From NCBI GenBank assembly GCA_046483985.1, contig JAWOCD010000040.1, positions 32,001-96,000 of the forward strand: a stretch of DNA of 64,000 nt, given 5' to 3'. The translations under genes were made by a program, and so were the position numbers. Origin of the DNA: Promethearchaeia archaeon. Its GTDB lineage: Archaea > Asgardarchaeota > Lokiarchaeia > Sigyniarchaeales > SOKP01. Position 1 is the first letter of the stretch. Each line of letters begins with the position of its first letter. A model generated the notes under the pieces. The model was not told where the DNA came from, did no database searches, and saw nothing but the letters and a program-made list of their open reading frames with translations. Shown one piece after another: positions 22,563-38,636 of this stretch.

Positions 22563-25031
22563 TTAGCCGTTATTAATATATTCGGGAATTAACAAGATAA
22601 AGTTACTCCCTTTTGAATAGTCGTTTTTTACTCTATTTTCTACCCGAATATGGCCATTTAATTGATTGACAATCCTCTTCACTAAAGATAGGCCTAAACC
22701 CATTCCCTTTCCCGATTTTTGCTCAAATTTTCTCCTCTGAAATATTTTATCCTTGATCTCATCTTTAATGCCAATTCCATTATCAATAATCTCAATCTGG
22801 ATAAACTGAGTGCTCTCACGAGTTATTTTATGGACTTTTATGTTAATTTCAATTAATTTATTATCATTATGCCTTACAGCATTTATCAGAATATTTTCAA
22901 ACACATCTTGCAACATATTATTGGCCTTAACATATAAATCTTCATGAGAAAAAGAAGTGGTAATCTCTAGATTTTTTGATTTAAAACTTTTTTCGATATA
23001 ATTAATTGCATCAAACAATATATTTCTTAAATCAAATTTTCTTAACTTGATCTTTTCTTCTCTATTAAATTCCGTTAATTTGCGGACATTCGATACTAAT
23101 TTTGTACCCCTAACGATTTGCTCTTTGATTATATCCAAAAATATCGGAATCTTTTTTCTCTTTTCAGGACTTTTCATATAATTTTTACTTAAATCAACTG
23201 AAGTATTAATATTTTGTAAAATATTGCTTATATCGTGGGCAAATAGATCTTTGTATAACTGGGTATGATAATAGGATTCTTGATAACTTTTTTGAATTTT
23301 TCTTAGCTCGGTAATGTTTTTTCCGACTTCAACCGCACCGATCAATTCTCCTACTTCATTTTCAACGGGATAAGCTTTTAATTCCCAATATCGACCGTCA
23401 TAGGTTGTAGTTTCATCCATACACGGTTTTCCGGTATCCACAGCTCTTTCAACGGGACAATTTTCACATGGAGTCGGACGATTATTCCATATTTCATAAC
23501 ATTTTTTACCTTGTAATTCGGCTTTGGTATAATCTACAGAATCAGCTGCCGCAACATTTGTCCAAATAATGTTATGATCCAAGTCTTGGAATGCAATCAG
23601 TTCTGAAATACTCCTTAAGATAATCGACTTATCTCTTTCCGATTCTTTTAACTTCTGTCGAGCTCTCTTTTCAGCCGTTATGTCTAAAACGGAAATAAAG
23701 GTCGCAGGCTCATCTTCATATTGAATCGATTTAGAATAGACTTCCAACCATATTTCTTCCTTATCTTTGCTATAACTCTGAATGGTACAATGGTTTATAA
23801 CATTTGTATTAGAGTTTTGTTCTTTTAGTGTTTTTCCTTCAACAGAATCTCTATATCCTGGAGATGTATTTTCAATTATATCATCTAACGTCCATTTATG
23901 GAGCTTTTCTATATCATAACCCAGAATATCTCCCATTGTTTTATTAACGTATTTTACGTGGTTATCTTGCAAGATAAAGATCCCCATTAAAGAATGTTCG
24001 GTTAGATTTCGAAATTTTATTTCGGACTTTCTCAGCTGTTCGGTTCTCTGTTTAATTTTTTGCTCTAACTCGAGATTAAGGTTCTTAAGTTTTTGTTTAG
24101 ATTTTCTTAATTCCAATTCAATGTCATGTTGCTTTAAGGCATTTCCCACAATATCCGCGGTAATTTTTAGTAAATTTAATGCTGTTTTTTTCCATTTACG
24201 GGAGGAGATGTTATAATCAAATCCAATAAATCCAACCACGTTTTCGCCCTTATATACAGGAAGATACAAGATGGAATCGATATTTTGATGGGAAAATAAC
24301 TCCCTTTCGGCTGATGCTTCAGGCGGTAGATTATTGATGTTGGGATAATTAATAACCTCTCCCTTAGAGATCTTAGTAAAAGTCCATGAATAATCATCCA
24401 TAGGGATTTCTTGGAGGAAAGAGATTTGGGATGATATTCCCTCAGCACACCATTCATGAGTATTACTGAAAGTATTTTTCTCCTCATCCAACTGAAATAA
24501 GTAAGCACGACTCGCGTCTACAAATTTTCCAATCTTTCTCAAGGCAAAATTAATCTTTTCATCGAAATTTTTTAATTCTACAAATTTAGAAGAAATCTCG
24601 GACAAAATACTTTCAAGTTTTAATTTCTGATCCAATTTATGTGTCTTTTTTTTTAGTTCAGAAATGTTATGTAGATACATAATCACATACTTCGGTGGAA
24701 AATAGGTATATATTGCCCTAAAATATAGCCGCTCTTTAGAATCTTTTAGTTTATATTTGATTTTTTTTGAAATTTTTTTCTTTTTCTTATAAGCATTTCC
24801 CAAATCATCCACTATCTCTGGTTGATCTTCATAAAAAGAAGAAGCTGAAACGTCTGAAATGTCTGTGGAATCATATATCATGCCTGCCGAAAATTTATAT
24901 CCCGCTCGATTATATCCTGCCAAAATCAGATTTTGATCTTCTTTTTCCCAGATAAAAAAAGGATCAGGAAGATAATTAATCAATTGGGTGAATTTTTCCG
25001 GAATTTCCTGTTTTTCGTGTGAATGCTCCAA
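22563..25031 (-). CDS. PAS-GAF-PAS-PAS sensor histidine kinase
   Basis: GAF (NTHEWCAEG), PAS domains, FAHDISNILQ, ENILINAVRH, DNGIGI, GMGLGL. Confidence 0.92.
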   Translation of the reverse strand: MEHSHEKQEIPEKFTQLINYLPDPFFIWEKEDQNLILAGYNRAGYKFSAGMIYDSTDISDVSASSFYEDQPEIVDDLGNAYKKKKKISKKIKYKLKDSKERLYFRAIYTYFPPKYVIMYLHNISELKKKTHKLDQKLKLESILSEISSKFVELKNFDEKINFALRKIGKFVDASRAYLFQLDEEKNTFSNTHEWCAEGISSQISFLQEIPMDDYSWTFTKISKGEVINYPNINNLPPEASAERELFSHQNIDSILYLPVYKGENVVGFIGFDYNISSRKWKKTALNLLKITADIVGNALKQHDIELELRKSKQKLKNLNLELEQKIKQRTEQLRKSEIKFRNLTEHSLMGIFILQDNHVKYVNKTMGDILGYDIEKLHKWTLDDIIENTSPGYRDSVEGKTLKEQNSNTNVINHCTIQSYSKDKEEIWLEVYSKSIQYEDEPATFISVLDITAEKRARQKLKESERDKSIILRSISELIAFQDLDHNIIWTNVAAADSVDYTKAELQGKKCYEIWNNRPTPCENCPVERAVDTGKPCMDETTTYDGRYWELKAYPVENEVGELIGAVEVGKNITELRKIQKSYQESYYHTQLYKDLFAHDISNILQNINTSVDLSKNYMKSPEKRKKIPIFLDIIKEQIVRGTKLVSNVRKLTEFNREEKIKLRKFDLRNILFDAINYIEKSFKSKNLEITTSFSHEDLYVKANNMLQDVFENILINAVRHNDNKLIEINIKVHKITRESTQFIQIEIIDNGIGIKDEIKDKIFQRRKFEQKSGKGMGLGLSLVKRIVNQLNGHIRVENRVKNDYSKGSNFILLIPEYINNG

Positions 25032-25551: not shown

Positions 25552-26484
25552 TTATTCGCCTTTGATAATTTTCTCTAGATAAGGGAAAAATCTGGTGTAA
25601 TGGACTGCCATGCAATGGATACCGTCAATTAAATCCTTGCTTTTGAGCTCTGTAATAAATGGTTTAAAGTGCTTATAGTTCAGTTCGTCGTACATCTCCC
25701 TCTTCTTCTCTTTATTGGGGGCATTTTTCTTTACGTCTTTCCAACTCGCAAGGACCTCTTTTGGAACATCTACTCCAGGCACAAACATATCAAAACCTTT
25801 TGCAATACCATAAGATTTCATCGGAAAAATTCCAAGCATTATCGGCACATCATATTTTTTAATTTCTTTTAAAAATTCGATGGTTTTGTCGATATCATAG
25901 ACAACTTGTGTTTGAAAGAATTCTGCTCCTGCTTTTGCCTTTCTCTTGATTTTAAGCACTTCAGACATCATCGGATCTGCATTTGGATTCGCAGCCGCAC
26001 CAACATGAAGAGTGGGTGGATGTTCGATTTCTTCTCCATTTATCTTCCCAGTATCAACCATTTCTCTTACCATCTGAACAAGAGTAGCGGAATCTAAATC
26101 AAATACGGGTTTACATTCCGGCATATCTCCCATTGCAGGATGATCTCCGGTAAGTGACAGTACATTCCGAATTCCTAATGCATGTGCTCCCATAATCATT
26201 CCAGCAATGCCTAATCTATTACAATCTCGTACAGTTAATTGCCATACACATTCCAAACCCGTCTCATCTTGGATAATTTTTGTAGCTGCCATCGAATTAA
26301 TGGTGACAATGCCCAGCGGACTGTCGGTGACGTTCGCGGCAGTCACATATGGAGCCATTTCCTTTGCCTCTTCTACTGTATGGGAAAGATCGCATGTTTT
26401 CTCAGGTTCAAGTTCTCCAGTTAACACAAAATCTCCACTAGCTAATTTTTCTCCTAATTTTGAATATATTTTCTTATCTGACAT
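25552..26484 (-). CDS. metF: Methylenetetrahydrofolate reductase, copy 1
   Basis: GELEP, NVTDSP, QLTVRDCN, LTGDHP, FFQTQVVYD. Confidence 0.9.
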   Translation of the reverse strand: MSDKKIYSKLGEKLASGDFVLTGELEPEKTCDLSHTVEEAKEMAPYVTAANVTDSPLGIVTINSMAATKIIQDETGLECVWQLTVRDCNRLGIAGMIMGAHALGIRNVLSLTGDHPAMGDMPECKPVFDLDSATLVQMVREMVDTGKINGEEIEHPPTLHVGAAANPNADPMMSEVLKIKRKAKAGAEFFQTQVVYDIDKTIEFLKEIKKYDVPIMLGIFPMKSYGIAKGFDMFVPGVDVPKEVLASWKDVKKNAPNKEKKREMYDELNYKHFKPFITELKSKDLIDGIHCMAVHYTRFFPYLEKIIKGE

Positions 26485-26499
26485 TTGTCTAATTCACCT

Positions 26500-27180
26500 C
26501 TATCTAAATACAACCTCTTGCTGGTGCCCAGTATCTGACCAGTCTCGAGGTTCTCGTAGTTTTTCGAATAAATCTAACCTTCCTAAGGCTTTTAACCGCT
26601 CGAAAATTAGGACCCAGCCGCAATCTCGTTCGTAATCGTCCACTTCACACTTTCCTTCCACCATACCGCCGCATGGACCATTCATAAGTCCTTTTGCGCA
26701 CGTAGTAATAGGGCAGATGCCTCCCGTATAATTTAACAAACAGTCTCCGCAAGCTCCACACCGTTTATAAAAACGTCCGATTCGCTTAGTTTCCCCAATA
26801 AATTCTGTGTTATTGGTAATCAATACGGGAACATCAGCATAATCGGAATGTCTCTTCTGAAGCACATGGGTAATACTGGCAACCCCCAATCCGCAACTTA
26901 ACGTAAGAACCGCATCCATCTCAGGTAATATATCTCTGACCTTTCGAAGGTCTTTCATCATCACCCGATTGTCACAAACATCTTCGGCAACGATGGTGGT
27001 TAATACTTCATAGCCTTTTTCAGTGAGTTTTTCCTCCCACTCTTCAGCACCTTCGGTACCGCCAGTCTGGCAGAGTGCGGCACAAGTCCCGCAACTGACC
27101 AACAAAATCTTTTCTACGCCAAAATCTTCTAGCGCTTCAAAAACCTCTTCTTTAGGTTTTTTCGTGGTAATAACTACCAT
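26500..27180 (-). CDS. metV: MTHFR Fe-S/Zn subunit MetV, copy 1
   Basis: CGTCAALCQTGG, SCGLG, CGACGDC..GGICPITTCAKGLMNGPCGG..CEV..CGW. Confidence 0.9.
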   Translation of the reverse strand: MVVITTKKPKEEVFEALEDFGVEKILLVSCGTCAALCQTGGTEGAEEWEEKLTEKGYEVLTTIVAEDVCDNRVMMKDLRKVRDILPEMDAVLTLSCGLGVASITHVLQKRHSDYADVPVLITNNTEFIGETKRIGRFYKRCGACGDCLLNYTGGICPITTCAKGLMNGPCGGMVEGKCEVDDYERDCGWVLIFERLKALGRLDLFEKLREPRDWSDTGHQQEVVFR

Positions 27181-27671
27181 TTTTATTATACCTCTTTAAG
27201 TTATTTAATTATTTATGATAACATTTATTTTGTAGTTAGGAAAATTAATGAGAGAAATTAAGGTTAATCCTTACATATCATAAGTGAAATTATAGTAGAG
27301 CGATCTTGTCATCGTGAACATTTTCGCTTTTCAGATATACTTTCTCTTGATTATTGACGAAAATGATAGTTTGAGAGGCTTTTTTATGTCATTTTCAACA
27401 AAAGCATAAATCGAATATGAAAAGTTATAATATTTTTTGAATTGAAGAAAAATTTGGGTATTGTTCAATCAGATCAAAATAAAGACGAATAGGAATTAAT
27501 GATTGATGAATAATTAATAAAAAATTCAATACTCCTAAAAAGCTAGATTGAGATTTATAGATTCAAATCGATAATTTTAAATCCTAATGTCTATTATTTC
27601 TATGTGAGTCTTAATAATAAAACGATAAAGGAATACACAAAGAATTGGTGATTTAAATAGCTGTAACTTAC

Positions 27672-29354
27672 ATGAAGAAGCTGGAAGAAGAACCAAGATC
27701 ATATAAATCCCAGTTTACGCAATTAACAAAAGGTATAAACTTAAAAGCTCAAGAATGGATTTTATCGAAGGTCGATACCAACCAATCGATTCTGGAAGCG
27801 GGTTGTGGAACGGGTTTATTAGCACATAAACTAGCCCTTAAAGGAAATACGGTGAGGGCAATAGACAAGAACCCCAAAATGATAGAATTTGCTTCGGACA
27901 AATATCAGCAAGATAAGGAGAACAATCTTACATATCAAGTTGCTTCTATTGAAGATTTACCAGTTGATCAAAGATCACAAGATATCATCATCAGTACCTT
28001 TATGCTTTCGGAATTAAGGCCATTTGAACAGCAAACTTTTCTTCGGAACGCTTGGAAGGCTCTAAAAGAGGGGGGGAAACTAATCCTTGCTTCAGAATTT
28101 ATAGCCTCAGGTATATGGAAATTGGGCTTCAAGTTAAAAAGATGGAGATATAAAAAAAAATTAGAACGCCTTAAACTCCCCGCCACTCATCCCTTGGAAA
28201 ATTTTTACCAGTATTTAGAACCAATAGGGTTTAAAATTCTTAACGAAACCAAATGGAATCACGGCACTATCCATGTACTTGAATTACAGAAGACAATTAG
28301 AGGAGATCTGGATCAGAACGATGAGGAAGGATTATCTAAAAATAAACCAGGGTACTATCGTCCAGAATCCCTTAAATTTAAGGGATTAAGTTCACAGTTA
28401 AAAATCTACCGGTGTCTTTTTACGGGACAAATAGATAATGTGCCGATAGAACCTGGAATTTATCAATCTGGCAATCCTGATAAGGAATCACCAATCATAG
28501 TTACGGCAAACTATTACTACACCTATGCAAAGGTTATGCGCAACTTAGAAGGGATTGATGCTTGGGTTTTATGTGTTGATACAAATGGAATTAATGTGTG
28601 GTGTGCCGCTCGAGGGGGAGACTTCGGTAATCAGCAATTATTAGAAGCGATAAACGCCACCAATATTCAAGACCTAACAGACTCTCGTACCCTGATACTC
28701 CCTCAATTAGCCGCGGGAGGGGTTGCGTTACCCAAACTTCCTGAAGATCCAAAAGATTTTCCATTTTCCGTAGAATATGGTCCGATATGGTCCAAATATC
28801 TAAAAGAGTATCTCAAACAAGAAGGGGGGCAGAGAAAGACTCCCGAAATGAAACGAGCAAAATTTACGCTTTCCCATAGAATCAGGGCGGGAGTGACCCA
28901 TACCACCTTTCTATTCCGAAAAATCTTTGCAAAACCTCTGATAGTGATTTTTTTGGCTCTTTTCCTCCTTAACTACTTTAATTTTATAAATAGATTATGG
29001 TGGATGGGGGACCTCATTTTATGGCTTTTAATCCCCAATTTACTCATTCCAATCATATATCCCCTTTCCCAATTTACAAGAAAATTTATCTTTAAGGGAA
29101 CCTTATTTGGTACTATAAATATCTTCCTCTCGGGTTTTATCTCATGGGTAATGTATGGATCCTTACTGTATTCTGCACTTAATTCCATACTTTTTTTCTG
29201 GATAACTTTCTTCAGTACAATGTCCTTTAGCGGTTATACGATGTCAACAAACCCCCGAAAAATTCAAGAGGAATACTCAACATTCCGTAAAATCAACGTT
29301 ATTTTACTGTTATCAGCGATAATATTAACATTTTTAAGTTTAGTATTTATTTAA
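27672..29354 (+). CDS. Class I SAM methyltransferase fused to HgcA-like corrinoid domain and membrane anchor
   Basis: ILEAGCGTG motif I; PGIY..GNPDKESPIIVTANY; VDTNGINVWCAARGG cap helix (28593-28619); LILPQLAAGGV; several C-terminal TM helices. Possible ATA start at 27657. Confidence 0.85.
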   Translation: MKKLEEEPRSYKSQFTQLTKGINLKAQEWILSKVDTNQSILEAGCGTGLLAHKLALKGNTVRAIDKNPKMIEFASDKYQQDKENNLTYQVASIEDLPVDQRSQDIIISTFMLSELRPFEQQTFLRNAWKALKEGGKLILASEFIASGIWKLGFKLKRWRYKKKLERLKLPATHPLENFYQYLEPIGFKILNETKWNHGTIHVLELQKTIRGDLDQNDEEGLSKNKPGYYRPESLKFKGLSSQLKIYRCLFTGQIDNVPIEPGIYQSGNPDKESPIIVTANYYYTYAKVMRNLEGIDAWVLCVDTNGINVWCAARGGDFGNQQLLEAINATNIQDLTDSRTLILPQLAAGGVALPKLPEDPKDFPFSVEYGPIWSKYLKEYLKQEGGQRKTPEMKRAKFTLSHRIRAGVTHTTFLFRKIFAKPLIVIFLALFLLNYFNFINRLWWMGDLILWLLIPNLLIPIIYPLSQFTRKFIFKGTLFGTINIFLSGFISWVMYGSLLYSALNSILFFWITFFSTMSFSGYTMSTNPRKIQEEYSTFRKINVILLLSAIILTFLSLVFI

Positions 29355-29414
29355 TTAATGGAAATATCTAAAAGAAAGAAATAGAATATAATAATTAAAG
29401 AAAAATGGAAGTGT

Positions 29415-29762
29415 TTGAATGATATGATTCGAAATACAATAAATGACAAAGAGAATTCTAGTTGTTGTTCGTCTCCTAATATGGGAAATATTATGGGGGC
29501 ACTTGATATTCCGGTTTTTATTGATCCGTCAAAATGTGTAGGATGCGGTTTTTGTGAAGAATTATGCCCCTTTGGGCTTCCCAAAAATGACGGAAAGGGA
29601 AAATATTATGTGGAGGCCCCCGAAGAATGTGTTGAGTGCAGTGCATGTCAGCGAAACTGTCCTGCAGATGCAATCATCTTGGAGGAACAAAAAGGATGTG
29701 GGTGTTTATGGGATGCAAAAAACCGAATAAAGGAAAAGAATAATACATCTAAATGCTGTTAA
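29415..29762 (+). CDS. HgcB-like 2[4Fe-4S] ferredoxin
   Basis: CVGCGFCEELCP, CVECSACQRNCP, GCGC and terminal KCC, directly after the HgcA-like gene. Confidence 0.8.
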   Translation: MNDMIRNTINDKENSSCCSSPNMGNIMGALDIPVFIDPSKCVGCGFCEELCPFGLPKNDGKGKYYVEAPEECVECSACQRNCPADAIILEEQKGCGCLWDAKNRIKEKNNTSKCC

Positions 29763-29975: not shown

Positions 29976-30707
29976 TTACTCACCATATGATGATTCTGCC
30001 ATTCGCTCTGCCAATTCTTCTTTCAATTCTCGAATAAATCGGTTTAGTTCTTCACTTTGAGAAAGAAATTCTTCATTATGCAGCCCATTTATTAAAGAGA
30101 GAATATGAATTATGCCAGAAACCTCCTTATCACATGTGTGCCCGAACCGAGGTGCTCTGCATTCATGGCAGACACGGAGAGCAAAATCTTGGAGAGTTTC
30201 AACATCCAACTTCTTATTTTGTATAAACTTAGCACCTGCCTCTGAAGAGCCACAAGGAGAAACTCGTCTAATTTTTATAAACTTTACATCTCCATTATTA
30301 TCTACTTTAAGATCAAAATTAGGTTTTCCGAATTTCTCAGCAAAAGCGTCAATCTCTTGAATCCGCATATTGGGTTCTAATGAACACATTGTGCGCGGAC
30401 CGATTGATTTTGAATTTATATCTTTTACTTGCCTTAATAGACCTCTCCCAGGAGTTATCCCTAATATTAATGGTTTTTGAAGTTCTGCGATTTCTAATAT
30501 GATATCTGGGTGCCTAACATACACAACATATAAGTCACATTCTGGGATTTTTAAATCTAATCCATCATCAAGCATAATATTCGGTGAAATATCGGGAACT
30601 TCAATCCAGTTAGTGGAAAAAAATCTCTTAAAGTTTTCATAAGCTCTTTCCCCATATTTTCCATCTGTAATTAACCCAATAGTTATGACTCTATCTTCTT
30701 CATTCAT
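29976..30707 (-). CDS. DUF166-like conserved archaeal protein
   Basis: DGKYGERA, HPDI, MCSL, SPCGSS, CRAP..TC pattern recalled for this family. Confidence 0.6.
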   Translation of the reverse strand: MNEEDRVITIGLITDGKYGERAYENFKRFFSTNWIEVPDISPNIMLDDGLDLKIPECDLYVVYVRHPDIILEIAELQKPLILGITPGRGLLRQVKDINSKSIGPRTMCSLEPNMRIQEIDAFAEKFGKPNFDLKVDNNGDVKFIKIRRVSPCGSSEAGAKFIQNKKLDVETLQDFALRVCHECRAPRFGHTCDKEVSGIIHILSLINGLHNEEFLSQSEELNRFIRELKEELAERMAESSYGE

Positions 30708-30750
30708 TGTTTAAGCTCTGAGAAAAGGATTTAGATCAAAAATAAATTAG

Positions 30751-31170
30751 TTATTTTGTCCCATAGAGCTCGTCAACTTTTTGAGAGATCTCTTCCGCTA
30801 TAATTTTTGCTAATTTCAAACCTTTATCTCCTAAGCGTCTTGAACTATCTGGAATTAATTCTGGGTGGGCATCCATAAATTCTTTAACATTAACCATCGC
30901 CGCGGGTTTTCCACTATATTTATCTACGGCAACCCTTGCACATTCCTCTTCACAGCCTTCTACAGTAATGGTTGGATGATTCTTAGCAAAATCTCTCTCT
31001 TCTTGGCCTCCATGTCTTTCCAAACCCCCAGCCATAAAGAGTGGTTGGCATAAAATGATTGTTCGATTGGGACGTAATTCTTCAACGACCATTCTTGCAG
31101 CCGCTCTTGTTAAGGTACCCCCAACTAAATCTTCTCCACTACAAGCGATAATCCCTACTTTTTTTTTCAA
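30751..31170 (-). CDS. DGC-type putative zinc/metal-binding protein
   Basis: IIACSG...LC...VEGCEEEC; TTG start at 31170 behind GAGGAGG is preferred over 31209. Confidence 0.75.
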   Translation of the reverse strand: MKKKVGIIACSGEDLVGGTLTRAAARMVVEELRPNRTIILCQPLFMAGGLERHGGQEERDFAKNHPTITVEGCEEECARVAVDKYSGKPAAMVNVKEFMDAHPELIPDSSRRLGDKGLKLAKIIAEEISQKVDELYGTK

Positions 31171-31171
31171 C

Positions 31172-31594
31172 TTAATCCTCCTCCTTCTCATTATTATGAA
31201 GTAATTCATCTACTTTAGTAGCTATTTTTTCGGCAAGTTTTTTTGATAATTTTTTTGTATTTTCGCCAATGGGTATAATTTTTTGTTCTGGTTTAAGATC
31301 TCGATTCTCTTTTACCACATCTGTGGTCATAAATTGAGCGTCCACCTTACCAGTAGCTTTTTTGAGGTCGTTAAATGAGCATTTTAGAGGGCATCCATCA
31401 ACCGAAATTACATAATTTTCTTTCATTTTTTTGATTGTTTCGTCTTTCCCCTTAACAATCAATGGTAAACATTCGATTTCTGCTTTTTTTTTAGCCAATT
31501 CATCCACAACAATATAAGCCGCTTCTCTGCCAATGCTACCAAAAACTTTCCCTATTCCACTACAAGGTATAATATATACTTTTTTCTTATTCAT
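31172..31594 (-). CDS. DGC-type putative zinc/metal-binding protein
   Basis: IIPCSG...ECL...VDGCPLKC. Confidence 0.8.
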   Translation of the reverse strand: MNKKKVYIIPCSGIGKVFGSIGREAAYIVVDELAKKKAEIECLPLIVKGKDETIKKMKENYVISVDGCPLKCSFNDLKKATGKVDAQFMTTDVVKENRDLKPEQKIIPIGENTKKLSKKLAEKIATKVDELLHNNEKEED

Positions 31595-31605
31595 TTCACA
31601 TACAT

Positions 31606-32481
31606 CTATTCTTTTTTATGATGATTTTTTTCCTTTTCCGCTTTATCTTTCATATATTTAAAATAATCTGGACCATCCATCAAAAATTCCTTATCTTCTT
31701 CAAAATTTTCTAATTTTATTTCGGCAAACCACCCTTTTTGATAAGCATCTTTATTCAATAATTCGGGTTGGTCATTTAAGTTGTGATTAATATTTATAAT
31801 CTCTCCAGAGGCAGGAGAAATAAGCTGCAGAACCGTTTTTGTAGATTCAAAATTCCCTACGTCATCAAATTGTTCAATCTTTTTACCTTTTTCTGGAAGA
31901 TCAACAAATAAGATATCACCAGCACTATTTTGTAAATAGTCCGAAATTCCAAGAAGTGCAGTATCTCCTACTGGTTTTACCCAACAATCGTTCTCATTAA
32001 AATAGTATCCCGATTTTGGGACTCGAAATCTGTATTTATCGATAACCGTTTCAAAATAGTTAATTTCATCAAATTCTCTTTCTTTGCCTTCAATTTTCTC
32101 CTTAGGCTCTGTTAATTCGTCCATGATATATTTAGAAATTTTTTCTACTAATTTTTCTCCTTCTTCAGTTAAAGTTAAATCCTTACCAGGTTTCATCTTA
32201 AATTTTTTCAACATCTCCGGTATTGAAACTCTTAAAACAATATTGGATTGAATATTCTTAACTAATTTGGTTGCACAACGTGTCATACATCCATCGATAA
32301 TTATGACTTTATAGTTAGTTACCATTTCTTCATATTTTTCGTTTCCCGAATTCAATGATACCGGACAAATAATTTTGATATTATCTTCCATTTCATTGAG
32401 TTTTAAGGCGACTTCTCTTGCGACTACGCCAAGAATCTTATCTAATCCATTACACGGCAAAACACATAGTTTTTCTTTCAT
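31606..32481 (-). CDS. DGC domain fused to glycine-cleavage H-like lipoyl domain
   Basis: N-term LPCNG..ICP..IDGCMTRC; C-term GISDYLQNSAGDILFVDLP..FESTKTV..SPASGEI..PELLNKDAYQKGW with the lipoyl Lys position retained. Confidence 0.85.
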   Translation of the reverse strand: MKEKLCVLPCNGLDKILGVVAREVALKLNEMEDNIKIICPVSLNSGNEKYEEMVTNYKVIIIDGCMTRCATKLVKNIQSNIVLRVSIPEMLKKFKMKPGKDLTLTEEGEKLVEKISKYIMDELTEPKEKIEGKEREFDEINYFETVIDKYRFRVPKSGYYFNENDCWVKPVGDTALLGISDYLQNSAGDILFVDLPEKGKKIEQFDDVGNFESTKTVLQLISPASGEIININHNLNDQPELLNKDAYQKGWFAEIKLENFEEDKEFLMDGPDYFKYMKDKAEKEKNHHKKE

Positions 32482-32500
32482 AAAGACACCCTAAAATTTT

Positions 32501-32797
32501 TTATTTCCCTCTAATCTTTTTAATCTGAGCCTTAACGTCTTTTTTATCTGGAAAAGAAAGTGCGTCCAAAGGACATGCTTTTGAACACGCTCGACAAAAC
32601 ACAACACAATTATGGGGATGTTTAACAATTAATTTTTTTTCCTCGCTTTCTATTTTTTCAAAGACATCATGCGGACAAAATTCAGTACAATCCATACAAA
32701 AATCGCACTTATCATAGTCTATTGTTGGATGCCATTCAATTTTATTTCGTGGGACTCCCATAAATGTTTCTTTATTTGAATCATATCCCTTACTCAT
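32501..32797 (-). CDS. Ferredoxin (4Fe-4S dicluster)
   Basis: CDFCMDCTEFCP and CVVFCRACSKACP; second ATG (32797) fits the SD spacing. Confidence 0.85.
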   Translation of the reverse strand: MSKGYDSNKETFMGVPRNKIEWHPTIDYDKCDFCMDCTEFCPHDVFEKIESEEKKLIVKHPHNCVVFCRACSKACPLDALSFPDKKDVKAQIKKIRGK

Positions 32798-33185
32798 TAT
32801 TCTCATCCTCCTTGATTTCTTTTAATGTTTTTTCTACTAAATCCACGGCTTCTTGAGTTGTCATTTCTCTTATATCTAGAGGGACTAGATCTTCTTTAAC
32901 ATCTAATCCCGCCTTTTTAAATGCGTCCTTGAATAGTTTATATTGCATGGTTGCAGCACATCCAGCAACCATATATTTTTTTCCAGCTTTTAGAAAATCA
33001 TCCCAAAACCTATCGCCATCTTCCTCACATAATTGTGGGTGGATAAATCCGTATTCCACGGGTAATTCAATTCGAACTTGGTTAATGAAATCCCAAATAT
33101 CCATCTTGGCAAAACCAGGACATTTTCCCGTGCAGACACACATTATAAATCCAATCTTTTTTTCTTCTTGTGCTTCTGAACTCAT
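32790..33185 (-). CDS. Stand-alone HdrA N-terminal-like Cys/Fe-S module
   Basis: IGFIMCVC..C, HPQLC, VAGC, LDIRE pattern parallels RIGVFVCEC..YSC..VAAC..SIRE in the HdrA at 46702..50238. Confidence 0.7.
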   Translation of the reverse strand: MSSEAQEEKKIGFIMCVCTGKCPGFAKMDIWDFINQVRIELPVEYGFIHPQLCEEDGDRFWDDFLKAGKKYMVAGCAATMQYKLFKDAFKKAGLDVKEDLVPLDIREMTTQEAVDLVEKTLKEIKEDENNE

Positions 33186-33250
33186 TCAAATCATTCTTAA
33201 GTTTAATTTAGTTTTATTTAATTAAGTTAACTTTTTTATATTTATAAATG

Positions 33251-33268
33251 TATGCATTAATACGCATA
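33251..33268. promoter_or_regulatory. Putative ArsR operator 1 (TATG-N10-CATA)
   Basis: TATGCATTAATACGCATA inverted repeat in the divergent intergenic region. Confidence 0.6.
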
Positions 33269-33343
33269 GATGCATAAAGTTTCTCTCTTATATTTTAAAT
33301 TCCTTAAACTTATATTAGAATAAGAATATTTTTAATTTGAATA

Positions 33344-33361
33344 TATGTAAAATAATACATA
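33344..33361. promoter_or_regulatory. Putative ArsR operator 2 (TATG-N10-CATA)
   Basis: TATGTAAAATAATACATA, same spacing as operator 1, 11 nt before the arsR ATG. Confidence 0.6.
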
Positions 33362-33372
33362 CATAAATCAAA

Positions 33373-33696
33373 ATGGATCTAAAACCACTAAAAATAAAAA
33401 CATTAAAAGCATTATCGGATGAAACAAGATTAGAGATAATAAGTCTTCTACGTCATGGTGAGGAGCTTTGTGGATGTGAGCTCGAAAAGGTAATTGATAA
33501 ATCCCAATCGACAATCTCCAGACATTTAAAGAAACTTGAAGAGGCAGATTTGGTCGAAAGGCGAAGAGAAGGAGTTAAAGTACTTTATAGAATTAAAGAT
33601 CCTAAGATATACAAATTACTAGCTGTTCTTAATAATTTAATAAAAAGGAACAATAAATTTAAAAAAATCGTAGAACTTCAAAAAGAAATAAAATAA
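33373..33696 (+). CDS. arsR: ArsR/SmtB metalloregulator with alpha3 Cys site
   Basis: KALSDETRLEII, ELCGCEL, SQSTISRHLKKL, RREG. Confidence 0.88.
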   Translation: MDLKPLKIKTLKALSDETRLEIISLLRHGEELCGCELEKVIDKSQSTISRHLKKLEEADLVERRREGVKVLYRIKDPKIYKLLAVLNNLIKRNNKFKKIVELQKEIK

Positions 33697-33708
33697 ACAA
33701 AAGGTGGA

Positions 33709-33990
33709 ATGATTAAATTGAAAGAAAATGAGAAATTAAAGATCGATATTTATGTGCCATTAAATGTTTGCTCGTGCCAATGGGAGGGTTTTATGAACTC
33801 TATATTTGCAGAGCTTAAAAAATACAAGGAGCATATTGATTTCCAAACAAAAAATCTTAAATCTGAAGAAGCAAGGAAATTAAATTTGCATGGAAATAGT
33901 GTAGTTATTAATGATGAGGAAGTCGTTAAATCTTCGTTTAATCTCAAGAGAAAATTACCGAAAATCTTAGAAGAAAAGGGCTTGATTTAA
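33709..33990 (+). CDS. Small CxC protein, possible thioredoxin-like fold
   Basis: KIDIYVPLNVCSCQW...SVVINDE; co-oriented with arsR. Confidence 0.55.
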   Translation: MIKLKENEKLKIDIYVPLNVCSCQWEGFMNSIFAELKKYKEHIDFQTKNLKSEEARKLNLHGNSVVINDEEVVKSSFNLKRKLPKILEEKGLI

Positions 33991-33992
33991 AG

Positions 33993-34454
33993 TTGAATGA
34001 ACACAAAAAAAGTCTTGATAATATAGTTTTAATTCCTTGTTCTGGGTCTGAATATAATGGGGAATTAGCCCGCCAAGTAGCTATTAGATTAAATGACGAG
34101 GGAGTTATTTCCAAAAATAGTTCTATGTTATGTTCGACTACATTTTTAAAAAACATCTTGCTCGAAAAACAATCCTTGGTGGATATCACAAAAAATAATC
34201 TTAAATCAAGTTTTCTTATTGTAATAGAGGGATGTAAAAGTTCGTGTAAAAGTCTTATCCTTAAACAATTAGGGATAAACCCCGATATGATTTTTCACGT
34301 AGATCAAATTGTACCCAAAGAAAGATTAAATCTGAGTGATCTTGAGGTCTTTAAAAACCGTCCTCGACTCAGTAATATTAAAAAAGACGATATCTCAAAA
34401 ATGGTTGATTATATTATAAAGAGTCTAAAAGAAAAGGGATATAATCTTAATTAA
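33993..34454 (+). CDS. DGC-type putative zinc/metal-binding protein
   Basis: LIPCSG...LCS...IEGCKSSC. Confidence 0.75.
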   Translation: MNEHKKSLDNIVLIPCSGSEYNGELARQVAIRLNDEGVISKNSSMLCSTTFLKNILLEKQSLVDITKNNLKSSFLIVIEGCKSSCKSLILKQLGINPDMIFHVDQIVPKERLNLSDLEVFKNRPRLSNIKKDDISKMVDYIIKSLKEKGYNLN

Positions 34455-34472
34455 ACGATTCGGAGTTTACCA

Positions 34473-34507
34473 CTAGAGTGCGAGAAAGCACCGTCCTTTG
34501 TTGTTCA
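34473..34507 (+). mobile_element. IS200/IS605 left-end remnant
   Basis: TAGAGTGCGAGAAAGCACCGT is near-identical to 38877-38897; ends GTTCA like the right end at 39091. Confidence 0.65.
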
Positions 34508-34542
34508 ATTAATATAAATGGATACATTATAGGTCGAAAAAG

Positions 34543-35193
34543 TTGGAAGTCAATTTTTTAGTAGCTTTTTTAGCAGGATTAGTAATCGGAGCAACACCTT
34601 GTATTTTGTTAATGCTTAGTGCTTTTGGATCCTCTTTAATATTAAGGGGAGAACGAAAAAATTTCATTAATATTTCCCTCGGTTTATTGTCAGGTTTTGT
34701 ACTTGGATATATATTTATTTCCATTATCTTTTTATTTTTTGTGCCAATGTTTGAGATGCTCTATTATTTCAAATATATATTTGCGGGAATCTTGATTTTT
34801 ATAGGAATTTGGCAAATTCTTGATTATAAAAATGAGGACAGCAGAGTTTTTAGTACACCCCAAAAGGTAAAATCAGTATTGAAAAATTTTATTAAAAAAA
34901 GAACAGGGACTTATGCGCTTTTAGTTGGAATCATATTTGTCTTTATTAAAATGCCTTGTTTTGGCGGTGTATATTTGTCCCTTCTTTATAATCTGCATAA
35001 AAACCCTCTTCTTTATGTATTTATAATGTGGTATATAATAGGTATGTTAATGCCTATCACTCTGATCTTGATTTTACTCCGATTAGGTTTAAAATATAAA
35101 AAAATTAATAATTTCAGATTAAAATATCGGCCATATTTGAGGTTATTAAGTGGAGGAGTTTTAGTATTTCTTGCAATCTATTTACTGATATAG
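34543..35193 (+). CDS. CcdA/DsbD-like transmembrane thiol-redox protein
   Basis: About six TM helices with paired TPCIL and MPCFG motifs. Confidence 0.75.
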   Translation: MEVNFLVAFLAGLVIGATPCILLMLSAFGSSLILRGERKNFINISLGLLSGFVLGYIFISIIFLFFVPMFEMLYYFKYIFAGILIFIGIWQILDYKNEDSRVFSTPQKVKSVLKNFIKKRTGTYALLVGIIFVFIKMPCFGGVYLSLLYNLHKNPLLYVFIMWYIIGMLMPITLILILLRLGLKYKKINNFRLKYRPYLRLLSGGVLVFLAIYLLI

Positions 35194-35369: not shown

Positions 35370-38300
35370 ATGCTTTCCGAAGACACAATAATATTGTTCG
35401 GAATTACCCCTGGGGTTACCGAATTCCGAAAAGTTTATAATATGCTCAAGTATTTTATGAAGGAAAAGAAGGAAATCGACTATAATGACAGATTTAACAT
35501 CATCTTTTTTACTGGTGAGGGGCCCAAGTATTTTGAGGATTTTACTTTAAATCCCGCTCATCTATTAGAGACCCTTAGTGACTCGAAGTCCGAGATAATA
35601 GAGGCGGATATTGCGGGGGGTATCTTTATCTCTGCTATGTACGTTGTTGAAGTATTTCAGAAGATCTCGGGGAAGTGCTTTCGAATGATTATTCTTTCCG
35701 ATTCGGGATCAAAAAAAATTCCTGAAAAACAAATGTCCTTTCTCTCCGATTTGTTAGAAAAAATTACGGATATACCATTCATTATGGACGCCGTTCGAAT
35801 AGATGGGGATGACCCCCGAGATGATTTACGATTGATGAAATTAGCGCGACGGACTGGAGGAGATCTTTATGAGATTGACGAAATAGATCAAGAAGCTGCA
35901 GAAGCGGAAACCTCTGCTAAGGAAAAGGAGAAAACGGTAATCGAAATGCTTGGAAAGTTATCCCGAACTCCACTCAATCTTGCCAAGAAACTGAAAAAAG
36001 AAGTACAAGAAGAGGAAATGCAGGAAAAAGAACAATTCAGCGACCTCCAAGATGTCTTAAATCATCTAAAGGGCAAAAAGAAGGTGGAAGCCGAATTATT
36101 TGAGGTAAATAATATGGAAGATATTCCTCCAAAAAAAAGGGTATTTTATGAGGGATTAGGCGAGCCCCTTCAGCCAGTAGGCGGGGAAGGAAATAAACGG
36201 TGCATGATCTGCTTCACGTCTTTAAAAAATCAAGAGTTACTAAAGTGCCCCAATTGTAAGAATATTGCACATAAAATCTGCTTTGCCATCTGGGCAAAGA
36301 AATCAAACATAGGCATTCCCCACATATTTCGATGTCCTAATTGCTATAGTTTAATTAAAATGGACAGCGATTTAATTAAAAAGGTAAATAGAGTGAAAAC
36401 GCCCACCATTGAGGTGTGTAAGGATCTTGAAAACGTTTGCTTGGAAGAATACTTGGAATCCTTGGAATCTCCCGAAGGACCTAAAGTGATTACCTCAGAG
36501 GAAGGGAGTTTTAGTGAAGTGGAAGAAGAGACGGAAGAAGAATCCAAACAGAAAGTGGAAACGGAAGGAGTATCTAAAAGGGCAGAAACAGATGATAAAG
36601 AATTGAAAATGATATGGTGTCCCAAGTGTGGAAAGATGATTACCAATGAATATAATCGCTGTCCACAGTGTGGATATAAATTAAGAAAAGTAAAACCGAG
36701 CGAAGGGAGGGAAGCAGCATCACAACGGCAAGAAGAAGCAGAGATTTTATCACAAATTAGTGAACTAAAGGTCAAGGAAAAAAGCGATCTAAAGGCCAAA
36801 AATCACAGGCAAGCAATTCAAAAAGCCCAGAAGATTAGAAAGTTGGCCAAACAGTTGGGAAAAGAAGAAATGGTACAAGAACAAGAAAACTTTATAGAGA
36901 AAGTAGAGGAAGAACGGAACCTTGGAGAGATGAGGAAAGATTACAATAGGAAATTCAGTTATTTAAAGAATAAAGTCAGCAATTTACTTAAACACAATGC
37001 CATTTCCAAAGCCTATCAAGCTGTAGAGGATTTCTCTGTACAAAATGAGGATTTAATTTCATCTCTTGCAACCCCCGAATATGAAAAATTTAAAACAAAG
37101 ATTACAGATCTGTATCAAGGAAAAGGTAAACAAGAGAAGAAAAAGACCAAAACAGGAGGGATAAAACAAGTAAGTAGTCAAGCAACTGAAGAAGATATTT
37201 GGGAAAAATTGGATGAAAAGGAAGGCGAGATTAAATCAAAGATAGGGGAAATAACAAAATTAAACGAAGCTCGGAAACAAATCTCTCAAAAAGTTGAAAA
37301 TCACGAATATGATGGAGCCATCAAAATTTTAAACTCCGCGATTGATGACATAAGCAGTCAAGAACTTGCAGAATATAAGAGGAGTTTGCAAGAAAAAAAA
37401 GCAAAAATTCGGAGAAAAAAGAAAAAGCATAACAACTTGTCCAAAAAAATAACAAAGGAACAAAAGAAATATGAGAAGAATCATAAGAAAGATAATCTTT
37501 ACGCTGCATTAAATTACGCCACGAATGTGAAATTGTTGGCAGGACAATTACAAAACGCTGAACTTAAAGAAAAGTATTCCGAAATTGAGAAAGATCTCGT
37601 AGAGGAAATAGAGGATCAAAAGGAAAAAGATGTCGTTGAAGGAGACGAATTGGAGGAGGACCTGAAATCCTTGGAAGATACCATTAAGATCGAGTATTTT
37701 GACGATGACCTTATCCCAATTATAAAAAAATACCATTTAGACGAATTAGAACAGAAACACGCGAACTCGGAAAAGATTATTAAGGTTGCTTCCAAACGTT
37801 TAAAAGAAAATCGTAATAAGATGAAAGAAAAAATAACGCAAGAGCTTATAGTATACTCTTCGAATGGTGAAGTTTTCCAAAAGCAAGCCCAACTCGGAAT
37901 TGAGAGAATAGAAAAGAGCAAAAAAGTCAAAAAGGACGTATTCAAAAAGATCGTAGAGTATAAAATAGAGTATAAGCCCAATTTCTCTGCGAAAAGAATT
38001 GAAGATCTAACAATTCAATTGAAGGTACCCTATCACTTCAAATTAACATCGCTTTTTATTCACGAGCAAGAATTTATCAATTTAGCGATAAAACAACCAA
38101 CTAAAGGTGGATTAAAATATTCTTTTATATTGGAGGATTTATCCCTTTCACGGGGATTCTCCATTCATTACCAGTTGGAGAGACATATTTCAAGGATTTT
38201 GCTCTTTACAAAAAAGAACTATCTGTACATGATCAAGTGCTTTTATAACGTTTCAGTCCCTTCAAGTGAAGCAAGCTCGAAGATTTTATTGCCCTTCGAT

Positions 38301-38636
38301 ATTAATGATGCACAGGATTTTAATTGGTTAATCATCGAAGATATATTTCCAATAAATTACAGCCCAGTTATTCTTGAACCAGAAAACTTGGAATGCGCAG
38401 AATCCTCTCTGGACGAAAAGGGAAAATTAGTCGGTTGGATTTTGGAAAATTTATCCGCGGGCACTCACTTATTTCAATATTTATTAGTTTCACCAGAGAA
38501 ACTCGCATTACTAACCAATTATCTTCAGAAAAAGCTTCAAAATGCAGATGCATTTTTACAACACGGGAATCTCATAGGTTTCAAAAAAAATGTGGAGGAG
38601 CTCAGTTCGATCATCCGTAAAGAGCTAAAATCATAA
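35370..38636 (+). CDS. vWA-like + C4HC3 zinc finger + zinc ribbon + coiled coil + beta-rich C-terminal protein
   Basis: DRFNIIF..MIILSDSG; CMIC..CPNC..AHKIC..W..CPNC; WCPKC..CPQC; paralog of 39140..40306. Confidence 0.75.
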   Translation: MLSEDTIILFGITPGVTEFRKVYNMLKYFMKEKKEIDYNDRFNIIFFTGEGPKYFEDFTLNPAHLLETLSDSKSEIIEADIAGGIFISAMYVVEVFQKISGKCFRMIILSDSGSKKIPEKQMSFLSDLLEKITDIPFIMDAVRIDGDDPRDDLRLMKLARRTGGDLYEIDEIDQEAAEAETSAKEKEKTVIEMLGKLSRTPLNLAKKLKKEVQEEEMQEKEQFSDLQDVLNHLKGKKKVEAELFEVNNMEDIPPKKRVFYEGLGEPLQPVGGEGNKRCMICFTSLKNQELLKCPNCKNIAHKICFAIWAKKSNIGIPHIFRCPNCYSLIKMDSDLIKKVNRVKTPTIEVCKDLENVCLEEYLESLESPEGPKVITSEEGSFSEVEEETEEESKQKVETEGVSKRAETDDKELKMIWCPKCGKMITNEYNRCPQCGYKLRKVKPSEGREAASQRQEEAEILSQISELKVKEKSDLKAKNHRQAIQKAQKIRKLAKQLGKEEMVQEQENFIEKVEEERNLGEMRKDYNRKFSYLKNKVSNLLKHNAISKAYQAVEDFSVQNEDLISSLATPEYEKFKTKITDLYQGKGKQEKKKTKTGGIKQVSSQATEEDIWEKLDEKEGEIKSKIGEITKLNEARKQISQKVENHEYDGAIKILNSAIDDISSQELAEYKRSLQEKKAKIRRKKKKHNNLSKKITKEQKKYEKNHKKDNLYAALNYATNVKLLAGQLQNAELKEKYSEIEKDLVEEIEDQKEKDVVEGDELEEDLKSLEDTIKIEYFDDDLIPIIKKYHLDELEQKHANSEKIIKVASKRLKENRNKMKEKITQELIVYSSNGEVFQKQAQLGIERIEKSKKVKKDVFKKIVEYKIEYKPNFSAKRIEDLTIQLKVPYHFKLTSLFIHEQEFINLAIKQPTKGGLKYSFILEDLSLSRGFSIHYQLERHISRILLFTKKNYLYMIKCFYNVSVPSSEASSKILLPFDINDAQDFNWLIIEDIFPINYSPVILEPENLECAESSLDEKGKLVGWILENLSAGTHLFQYLLVSPEKLALLTNYLQKKLQNADAFLQHGNLIGFKKNVEELSSIIRKELKS

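Follow-up and report, generated by a model that had tools for sequence, protein, structure and literature searches.

The DNA analyzed here, called the window below, is a stretch of 64,000 nucleotides from a Promethearchaeia archaeon (positions 32,001 to 96,000 of contig JAWOCD010000040.1), and it carries on its plus strand two neighboring genes whose products resemble the mercury-methylating pair HgcA and HgcB. The first gene (27672 to 29354) joins a CpaM-type S-adenosylmethionine (SAM) methyltransferase to an HgcA-like corrinoid domain and a domain of five transmembrane helices, as delineated from its open reading frame (ORF), Pfam and NCBIfam matches, an AlphaFold2 (AF2) model, and Foldseek comparisons. 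Its frame, open stop to stop from position 27657, is uninterrupted and encodes 560 amino acids (aa) from an ATG at 27672. The second gene, which begins 61 nt after the fusion ORF, encodes an HgcB-like 2x[4Fe-4S] ferredoxin of 115 aa (29415 to 29762, from a TTG start, with an ATG at 29424). The domain matches of both ORFs are far above chance, with E values of 4e-18 for Methyltransf_25 and 5e-16 for CdhD in Pfam and of 8e-54 for HgcA, 4e-37 for CpaM, and 4e-14 for HgcB in NCBIfam. The original prediction, made from the letters of the window, held that a single 560-aa ORF unites a SAM methyltransferase with an HgcA-like domain; the ORF, both family databases, and the AF2 model bear this out. All of the motifs it quoted could be located, namely EAGCGTG (aa 42 to 48), PIIVTANY (274 to 281), GINVWCAARGG (306 to 316), and LILPQL (342 to 347) in the fusion protein and CVECSAC (72 to 78), GCGC (94 to 97), and a terminal CC (114 to 115) in the ferredoxin.

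One explanation of such a gene is that it is an artifact of assembly or gene calling, the former a danger already recognized in the original prediction, or else a decaying pseudogene. We found nothing in support of this. A word-indexed search returned 1190 homologs of the fusion protein, and the best 120 of these are mostly 545 to 580 aa long and cover 95 to 100% of the query at 54 to 79% identity; those that are named come from metagenome-assembled genomes (MAGs) of Promethearchaeota/Lokiarchaeota, Hodarchaeota, Hermodarchaeota, and Heimdallarchaeota and are usually annotated as "methyltransferase domain-containing protein." Matches to the fusion occur in 140 of 301 sampled genomes of the phylum; within the window's own Asgard family the count is 58 of 68, and in the same sample three further Asgard families hold full-length matches at 30 to 35% identity. 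Because full-length homologs are so numerous and extend to such divergence in other families, the fusion must be old and maintained. More than 1000 full-length homologs from many genomes and independent assemblies, a span of four Asgard families, an uninterrupted frame, invariant catalytic residues, and a confident single-chain AF2 fold leave the artifact or pseudogene explanation a negligible probability. One methyltransferase-fused lineage is bacterial (Ca. Abyssubacteria). No cultured host was identified among the close homologs, every named one being labeled a MAG. In three metatranscriptome runs from a single salt-lake study, short contigs agree at 99 to 100% identity with portions of the fusion and ferredoxin genes, and one of them spans the intergenic region into the ferredoxin gene; these matches are a weak hint of expression and habitat, since DNA carry-over is possible and no silent control was covered.

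The N-terminal domain (aa 1 to 207; 27672 to 28292) is of the class I (Rossmann) SAM methyltransferase type, and its sequence identifies it as a divergent CpaM (NF043040). Pfam class I methyltransferase families (Methyltransf_25, Methyltransf_11) match aa 36 to 141, and the CpaM model scores 127.6 bits over aa 1 to 205 (profile positions 5 to 214 of 216), short of its curated cut-off of 180, with the next family at 59.5. When the whole genome was scanned with this model, the fusion came first at 135 bits and the next protein reached 56. SAM-binding motif I, E-A-G-C-G-T-G (27795 to 27815), and D65 at the end of beta-2 (27864 to 27866) were mapped by conservation in 57 fused proteins, where G44, G46, G48, and D65 are invariant down to 28% identity and the domain as a whole is conserved about as much as the transmembrane domain. 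AF2 gives it a Rossmann fold with a pLDDT of >90, and its Foldseek matches are class I methyltransferases bound to SAM or S-adenosylhomocysteine (SAH). ArsM is likewise a class I SAM methyltransferase encoded in ars operons, but the As(III)-binding cysteine set of the ArsM type is not present in the fusion, whose methyltransferase domain has C45, inside motif I, as its sole cysteine (the entire protein has four, with C311 invariant) and scores 39.5 bits with the ArsM model NF008823 against a cut-off of 263; the methyl route that we propose below would, moreover, run via cobalt. A poorly conserved linker that is partly disordered in the AF2 model (aa 208 to 238; 28293 to 28385) follows, with a pLDDT of <50 at aa 211 to 220 and 19% identity among distant homologs. 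Complex prediction of the methyltransferase part (aa 1 to 210) with the corrinoid and transmembrane parts (aa 236 to 560), both supplied as alignments, gave scores of 0.29 and 0.23 (mark, 0.32), which weigh neither for nor against a contact between them.

The central domain (aa 239 to 394; 28386 to 28853) is of the HgcA/CFeSP corrinoid-binding type, as judged from Pfam CdhD (aa 242 to 348), the HgcA model (aa 258 to 556), and corrinoid iron-sulfur protein (CFeSP) chains, and it is the best conserved domain of the fusion proteins. Its cap-helix motif, G-I-N-V-W-C-A-A-R-G-G (28587 to 28619), was delimited by conservation and includes Cys311 (codon at 28602 to 28604), the presumed lower axial cobalt ligand. 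N308, V309, W310, and C311 are the same in all 57 fused proteins, and of the 120 close homologs 118 have NVWCAARG unchanged, the other 2 having one substitution each. The C-terminal membrane domain (aa 400 to 559; 28854 to 29351) aligns with the transmembrane domain of the HgcA model and has five helices in the AF2 prediction (aa 400 to 435, 443 to 466, 472 to 495, 498 to 522, and 528 to 559). That prediction, made from the 57-sequence alignment, has an overall pLDDT of 88.8 and a pTM of 0.86 and resolves the chain into the three domains given above; the cap-helix region is unstructured, with low confidence at aa 312 to 314, as could be expected of a model that contains no cofactor. For the C-terminal two-thirds, the top Foldseek match in the PDB is the HgcAB integrative model (9a0b_A; E value of 4.5e-14, 28% identity, TM score of 0.63 by target), and a PDB sequence search with the fusion protein returned, apart from generic methyltransferases, only the large-subunit chains of CFeSP (2h9a and 4c1n, at 39 bits).

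The fusion protein thus has in common with HgcA of the Pseudodesulfovibrio mercurii ND132 type (NF040863, with HgcB as NF040864) the corrinoid domain, the N-V-W-C cap helix with its cysteine ligand, and the five-helix membrane domain, and it differs in its N-terminal methyltransferase domain, which canonical HgcA lacks. Its score with the HgcA model is 182.9 bits over aa 258 to 556, below the curated cut-off of 275; all methyltransferase-fused forms lie between 173 and 219 bits, against 367 to 429 for canonical representatives. The HgcAB-like model NF043039 gives 179.3 bits, at profile positions 13 to 272 only and against a cut-off of 285, and the CFeSP model NF003195 gives 72.9 bits (cut-off, 306) in a match limited to the corrinoid domain, the TIM-barrel and Fe-S parts being left out. 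It had been predicted that the GK of the HgcA cap helix is replaced by RGG while the tryptophan and cysteine are kept, and the comparison of NVWCAARG with the canonical NVWCAAGKGT agrees, the former failing the canonical rule N(V/I)WC(A/S)(A/G/S)GK. Under the community protocol, a high-stringency hgcA call requires one of six cap-helix motifs, all of which end in GK (PMC10087281, Capo 2022). As foreseen, then, strict-motif hgcA screens would miss the fusion, since its motif is outside these six and its score is below the NCBI cut-off. On these comparisons, we class the fusion protein as neither a canonical HgcA nor a fused HgcAB-like protein.

The ferredoxin was assigned from Fer4 families and from HgcB (NF040864), the highest-scoring family, which gives 52.3 bits where the cut-off is 99. 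Scoring with HgcA and HgcB profiles, a check suggested at the outset, therefore places both proteins under the respective cut-offs. The ferredoxin is nevertheless the genome's best HgcB match, and its score is in keeping with the 46 to 78 bits of ferredoxins that partner other methyltransferase-fused proteins, a canonical HgcB reaching 119.4. It has two CxxCxxCxxxCP motifs (C41 to C51 and C72 to C82; CVGCGFCEELCP at aa 41 to 52), the second of which reads CVECSAC and not C(M/I)ECGAC as in HgcB, and an N-terminal CC (aa 17 to 18) in addition to the GCGC and terminal CC already mentioned. A ferredoxin gene follows the fusion in 11 of 11 other genomes of one set and in 38 of the 40 related loci that we sampled for context (29 of the window's own family and 11 from two deeper families), and a small 2x[4Fe-4S] gene lies 3' of the fusion in every lineage examined, the bacterial one included. 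Among 23 ferredoxins of methyltransferase-fused proteins, 21 have GCGC(L/I)W after cluster 2 and 17 to 19 have the terminal cysteine pair. Neither feature occurs in the small ferredoxins of loci where the three parts are separate genes, and fused HgcAB-like tails end without a cysteine pair; a canonical HgcB fetched for comparison (L051) has GVGC and a C-x-C tail. C73, C94, and C95 of HgcB were reported to be important for methylation (PMC11588087), and the cysteine after cluster 2 and the terminal pair of the ferredoxin correspond to C73 and to C94/C95.

The association of such a methyltransferase with HgcA-like proteins extends well beyond the window. Asgard archaea arrange the three parts in several ways: the fusion with a separate, thiol-tailed ferredoxin; a triple fusion; a gene of 220 to 230 aa followed by an HgcAB-like gene; and three separate genes. 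Where the Asgard genes are separate, they exceed the NCBI cut-offs, at 237 and 286 bits for CpaM (cut-off, 180) and 367 and 452 bits for HgcAB_like (cut-off, 285), and separate and triple forms together cover 237 to 286 and 348 to 452 bits, respectively. Triple fusions of CpaM, HgcA-like part, and ferredoxin tail (588 to 655 aa) occur in Asgard archaea (L037, L038, L041, and L042) and in bacteria (L162 to L164 and L176, of which L163, L164, and L176 are Desulfobacterales/Desulfobacteraceae MAGs), and those tested (L037 and L041) exceed both cut-offs. Some deeper methyltransferase-fused relatives also pass the CpaM cut-off (P0176, P0268, and L032, at 212 to 231 bits; one from another family has 222 bits). 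Of 80 HgcAB-like loci listed, 77 had room upstream, and in 53 of these a CpaM-type gene is directly upstream, with a further 6 fused; the resulting 59 of 77, from many bacterial and archaeal phyla, is a lower bound. The cultured organisms with fused HgcAB (Pyrococcus, Kosmotoga, and Methanococcoides) have no locus in this set of 80. Matches to ArsM in the 80 loci may be cross-matches of CpaM and were left uncounted.

The methyltransferase-corrinoid partnership is therefore real and already known at the database level. The CpaM model is typed "hypoth_equivalog" in NCBIfam, the annotation pipeline PGAP applies the name CpaM to some 548-aa Hodarchaeales fusions, and the CpaM and HgcAB-like models probably stem from Haft and Gwadz in 2023. 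Our literature search for CpaM, also in combination with corrinoid, or for a methyltransferase-fused HgcA found no describing paper. The suggestion that the fusion acts as a Rosetta stone for how HgcA is methylated hence stands insofar as all fusion permutations of the methyltransferase, HgcA-like, and HgcB-like parts exist; the partnership itself is not new. The window's system has the same three modules as the CpaM and HgcAB-like system (NF043040, NF043039) and a cap helix of the same x-G-G rather than G-K-G type, but here it is the methyltransferase, not the ferredoxin, that is joined to the HgcA-like part, and the separate ferredoxin has the HgcB-like thiol tail that fused tails lack. This domain order is new for an HgcAB/CpaM-type system, and in the window's own family it comes with an arsenic-operon context.

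That context was seen in relatives. In the 29 own-family loci, a divergent ArsR-type gene accompanies the fusion in 19, acr3 in 14 (adjacent in 13), DUF166 in 8, and arsM in 2. Directly upstream of the fusion and co-oriented with it, relatives carry the gene of the ACR3 arsenite efflux permease (275 to 296 bits; cut-off, 283); the DUF166 gene, where present, comes ahead of both acr3 and the fusion in the same orientation, and two loci place arsM directly upstream of the fusion. One relative has the full set, with arsR and, divergent from it, DUF166-acr3-arsM-fusion-ferredoxin (ArsM at 347 bits; cut-off, 263). The divergent ArsR-type proteins have CxC, often CxCxxC, sites. FMN_red neighbors were considered as ArsH and set aside, as they have only weak WrbA-like NCBIfam matches. 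In the 11 loci of the two deeper families, the ferredoxin is the only shared neighbor; in one deep locus the fusion is directly preceded by a co-oriented ArsR-type gene, the layout described for ND132 hgcAB. In two loci of another Asgard family (L031 and L032, family f24), a PEMT/ICMT-type membrane methyltransferase gene is divergently adjacent to the fusion in place of ars genes. Canonical hgcAB genes, too, have been reported with acr3, arsC, arsM, and arsR at their flanks (PMC7438021), and an ArsR is reported to regulate hgcAB and to respond to arsenic and SAH (bioRxiv 10.1101/2022.10.17.512643).

By analogy with HgcAB, we propose that the two genes encode a self-contained, membrane-anchored, cobamide-dependent methylase that would pass a methyl group from SAM to the cobamide and on to a thiophilic metal(loid), arsenite being favored over mercury; we rate the chances of this reading as about even. 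The HgcB-like ferredoxin would supply the low-potential electrons for reducing the HgcA-like domain's cobamide to Co(I), with Cys311 as lower axial ligand; the CpaM-type domain would bind SAM and methylate Co(I) to CH3-Co(III); and the methyl group would then go to a thiophilic metal(loid) held at the membrane face by the GCGC and terminal CC thiols of the ferredoxin, after which the methylated product would leave the cell. Cobamide binding, every chemical step, and the substrate are all inferred. In purified HgcAB, the methyl group of SAM goes onto cob(I)alamin to give methylcob(III)alamin with a Cys ligand, which then methylates mercury (PMC11588087). For the window's own family, we prefer arsenite, or a metalloid related to it, on account of the usual placement of the pair in an arsR-controlled DUF166-acr3-(arsM) operon, a context that also backs the alternative in the original prediction of another metal(loid) as acceptor.

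Parts of this scheme have counterparts in characterized enzymes. CFeSP (AcsC/AcsD, CdhE/CdhD) with its methyltransferase MeTr shares a homologous corrinoid domain (Pfam CdhD; PDB 2h9a, 4c1n, and 4djd) and the logic of donor to cobalt to metal acceptor, but its donor is methyl-tetrahydrofolate (methyl-THF) via the TIM-barrel MeTr, and CFeSP is soluble with no cysteine ligand. In the reactivation domain of methionine synthase and in the class B radical SAM enzymes TsrM and Fom3, SAM methylates Co(I)/Co(II) of a protein-bound cobalamin; to our knowledge, these have unrelated SAM-binding folds, and none has a Rossmann class I methyltransferase domain.

Several observations count against the proposed methylase. 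We know of no Rossmann-type methyltransferase that has been shown to methylate a protein-bound corrinoid. Both proteins score below the curated cut-offs of the families to which they are compared (CpaM, HgcA, HgcAB-like, and HgcB), as given above. Purified canonical HgcAB uses SAM without any methyltransferase domain (PMC11588087), so that the domain is not obviously required for transfer from SAM to cobalt and may have another role. Neither the deeper fused lineages nor the HgcAB-like loci from other phyla were found to have the ars context, and the related loci are kin, so that synteny counts are not independent events. In the window itself, no acr3 or arsM adjoins the fusion; acr3 is on another contig of the genome, and ArsM was not found in the genome. 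The window's arsR lies 4 kb downstream of the fusion in a separate operon, and a comparison of the regions upstream of the fusion (27181 to 27671) and of arsR (33186 to 33372) for a shared operator yielded one AT-rich 11-mer, at chance level. Finally, CobS and CbiB were not found in this 97%-complete genome, for which reason the cobamide would need to be imported. The genome does encode a true gamma subunit of the acetyl-CoA decarbonylase/synthase complex, CdhE (contig C16, 483 bits), from which it follows that the organism uses corrinoids; with the HgcA-like fusion, it has at least two corrinoid proteins.

The relationship to HgcA bears on whether mercury is the true acceptor. An exhaustive search with aa 240 to 560 of the fusion gave about 1000 related clusters at 50% identity, which are of three kinds: canonical HgcA of about 330 aa with NVWCAAGKGT, HgcAB-like proteins of about 350 aa with NVWC-x-x-x-GG and two Fe-S motifs, and methyltransferase-fused proteins of 525 to 590 aa. 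A maximum-likelihood tree (77 rows, 314 columns, LG+C20 PMSF) was rooted on the genome's own CdhE. The canonical HgcA clade (100% SH-aLRT in a quick tree) excludes the fusion protein, as does the HgcAB-like clade (100/99); the fusion protein falls in a 9-row clade (100/99) that is joined to another Asgard clade (98/90). The backbone draws the methyltransferase-fused clades closer to canonical HgcA than to the HgcAB-like proteins, weakly (88/64, 94/53, 85/58), and an alternative in which canonical HgcA and the outgroup stand against all CpaM-associated forms as one clade is not rejected by the AU test (P = 0.254). For this reason, we make no claim on the ancestral form; canonical HgcA may descend from methyltransferase-associated ancestors. 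Two Asgard genomes (L044 and L046; closed or large contigs G259:C1 and G239:C1) have, besides the methyltransferase-fused form, a second and very divergent three-gene set that encodes a CpaM-like protein, an HgcA-like protein of 320 aa, and a ferredoxin of 72 to 75 aa without a thiol tail; this set forms long branches near the root of the tree. A metagenomic protein of 477 aa (P0243) combines a GNAT acetyltransferase domain with a canonical (GKG) HgcA and could be either a further fusion or the product of merged gene calls.

A functional mercury methylase would work by the same mechanism with Hg(II) as the true acceptor, and these Asgard archaea would then be unrecognized producers of methylmercury. 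The retained cysteine ligand, the five transmembrane helices, and the separate ferredoxin with its C73-like cysteine and terminal cysteine pair speak for this, as does the best tree, in which the fusion clade groups with canonical HgcA and not with the fused HgcAB-like clade. Nor does the ars context exclude mercury, because canonical hgcAB is also found near ars genes. We nonetheless consider a mercury methylase unlikely. The protein stands outside the strongly supported canonical clade, the backbone that brings it near is the weak one just described, its HgcA score is about that of other fused forms and far from the canonical range, and no mer genes were seen beside the fusion. The cap helix matches none of the six motifs that are linked to proven methylators, and the tested organisms with non-canonical (fused) HgcAB all fail to methylate mercury (PMC10087281).

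The methyltransferase domain could alternatively be a repair module only, re-methylating oxidized Co(II) in a reductive activation like that by the methionine synthase reactivation domain, with catalytic methyl groups coming from a donor such as methyl-THF made by MetVF. In the window, metV-metF (25552 to 27180, minus strand; methylene-THF reductase and zinc-ribbon partner, from Pfam MTHFR and DUF5981) is divergently adjacent to the fusion across a 491-nt AT-rich spacer, corrinoid methyltransferases do require reductive reactivation (PMC11588087), and the ferredoxin would suit an activation role. Yet metV-metF adjoins the fusion in 0 of the 40 related loci, and we rejected MetVF as a functional partner; the adjacency is probably coincidental. 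The cluster has no MeTr/AcsE-type methyl-THF:corrinoid methyltransferase, CpaM is tied to HgcA(B)-like genes in many phyla without a second methyltransferase alongside, and the catalytic donor of canonical HgcAB is SAM (PMC11588087). A pure repair function accordingly has, in our estimation, only a slim chance of being correct.

On the other side of the two genes, within 5 kb of the fusion, are a DUF166 gene, four DGC-domain genes, and the ArsR operon. The DUF166 gene (29976 to 30707, minus strand; Pfam DUF166 with a weak NCBIfam DfsP match) is convergent with the ferredoxin gene, and its position before acr3 and the fusion in 8 of 29 relatives suggests that it may be part of the same metal(loid) system. 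It belongs to a tightly packed minus-strand operon (29976 to 33185) that also encodes two DGC proteins, a DGC-GcvH fusion, a ferredoxin of the 2x[4Fe-4S] type, and a Cys-rich protein of 131 aa without a family match. The ArsR-family regulator (33373 to 33696, plus strand; HTH_5, 1.7e-16) has an ELCGCEL site and heads its own plus-strand operon (33186 to 35193), followed by a 93-aa small Cys protein with CxC, a DGC protein, and a 216-aa protein without a family match. A candidate operator is the palindrome TATGCAT-N12-ATGCATA at 33251, to which nothing upstream of the fusion corresponds. This operon resembles the ArsR-ArsE-DGC ars operon of ND132, an ars operon with a DGC-motif protein having been described there (bioRxiv 10.1101/2022.10.17.512643). 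The window is thus an atypical member of its family in which the ars transporter is not adjacent, and its arsenic context is weaker than that of its relatives. Farther out are an 822-aa PAS/GAF-type sensor histidine kinase, read from its translation, upstream of metF (22563 to 25031, minus strand) and a 1088-aa protein with a zinc-ribbon match only, downstream of the ArsR operon (35370 to 38636, plus strand).

The absence of ars genes around the deep lineages and in other phyla raises a further explanation, namely, that the acceptor is no metal(loid) at all but an organic or thiol compound or a membrane component, or that the protein runs in reverse as a demethylase, the ars neighborhood reflecting co-regulation only. 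The native function of HgcAB is itself a standing question, and the PEMT/ICMT-type membrane methyltransferase beside the fusion in one lineage also counts for this explanation. Against it, the conserved vicinal thiols on the ferredoxin tail suggest a thiophilic metal(loid), as does the own family's compact operon of the pair with acr3 (and, at two loci, with arsM), and no acceptor-specific features of the methyltransferase domain could be identified. We regard a non-metal(loid) acceptor as rather improbable.

Taken further, the proposed metal(loid) methylase invites a bolder reading, which we offer tentatively and think rather unlikely: the CpaM-HgcA-like/HgcB-like module would be a cobamide-dependent arsenite (metalloid) methyltransferase and, widespread in Asgard archaea, would provide, independently of ArsM, a second anaerobic path to methylarsenicals. 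On this view, passing a methyl group from SAM via cobalt to a metalloid with a dedicated methyltransferase would have been what the whole HgcA superfamily did ancestrally, and the methylation of mercury by canonical HgcAB would have arisen later, as a side activity, once the methyltransferase had been lost.

The native function of HgcAB and the source of its cobalamin methyl group are long-standing questions of mercury biogeochemistry, and it was not until 2024 that SAM was demonstrated to be the donor. A SAM methyltransferase covalently joined to an HgcA-like protein offers independent comparative support for SAM-driven cobalt methylation in the superfamily. For surveys of hgcA, the consequence is twofold: those run at moderate or low stringency might take these abundant Asgard genes for mercury methylators, and strict-motif surveys drop them. 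For the Asgard archaea that carry it, the module is a concrete candidate for corrinoid-dependent arsenic methylation in anoxic sediments.

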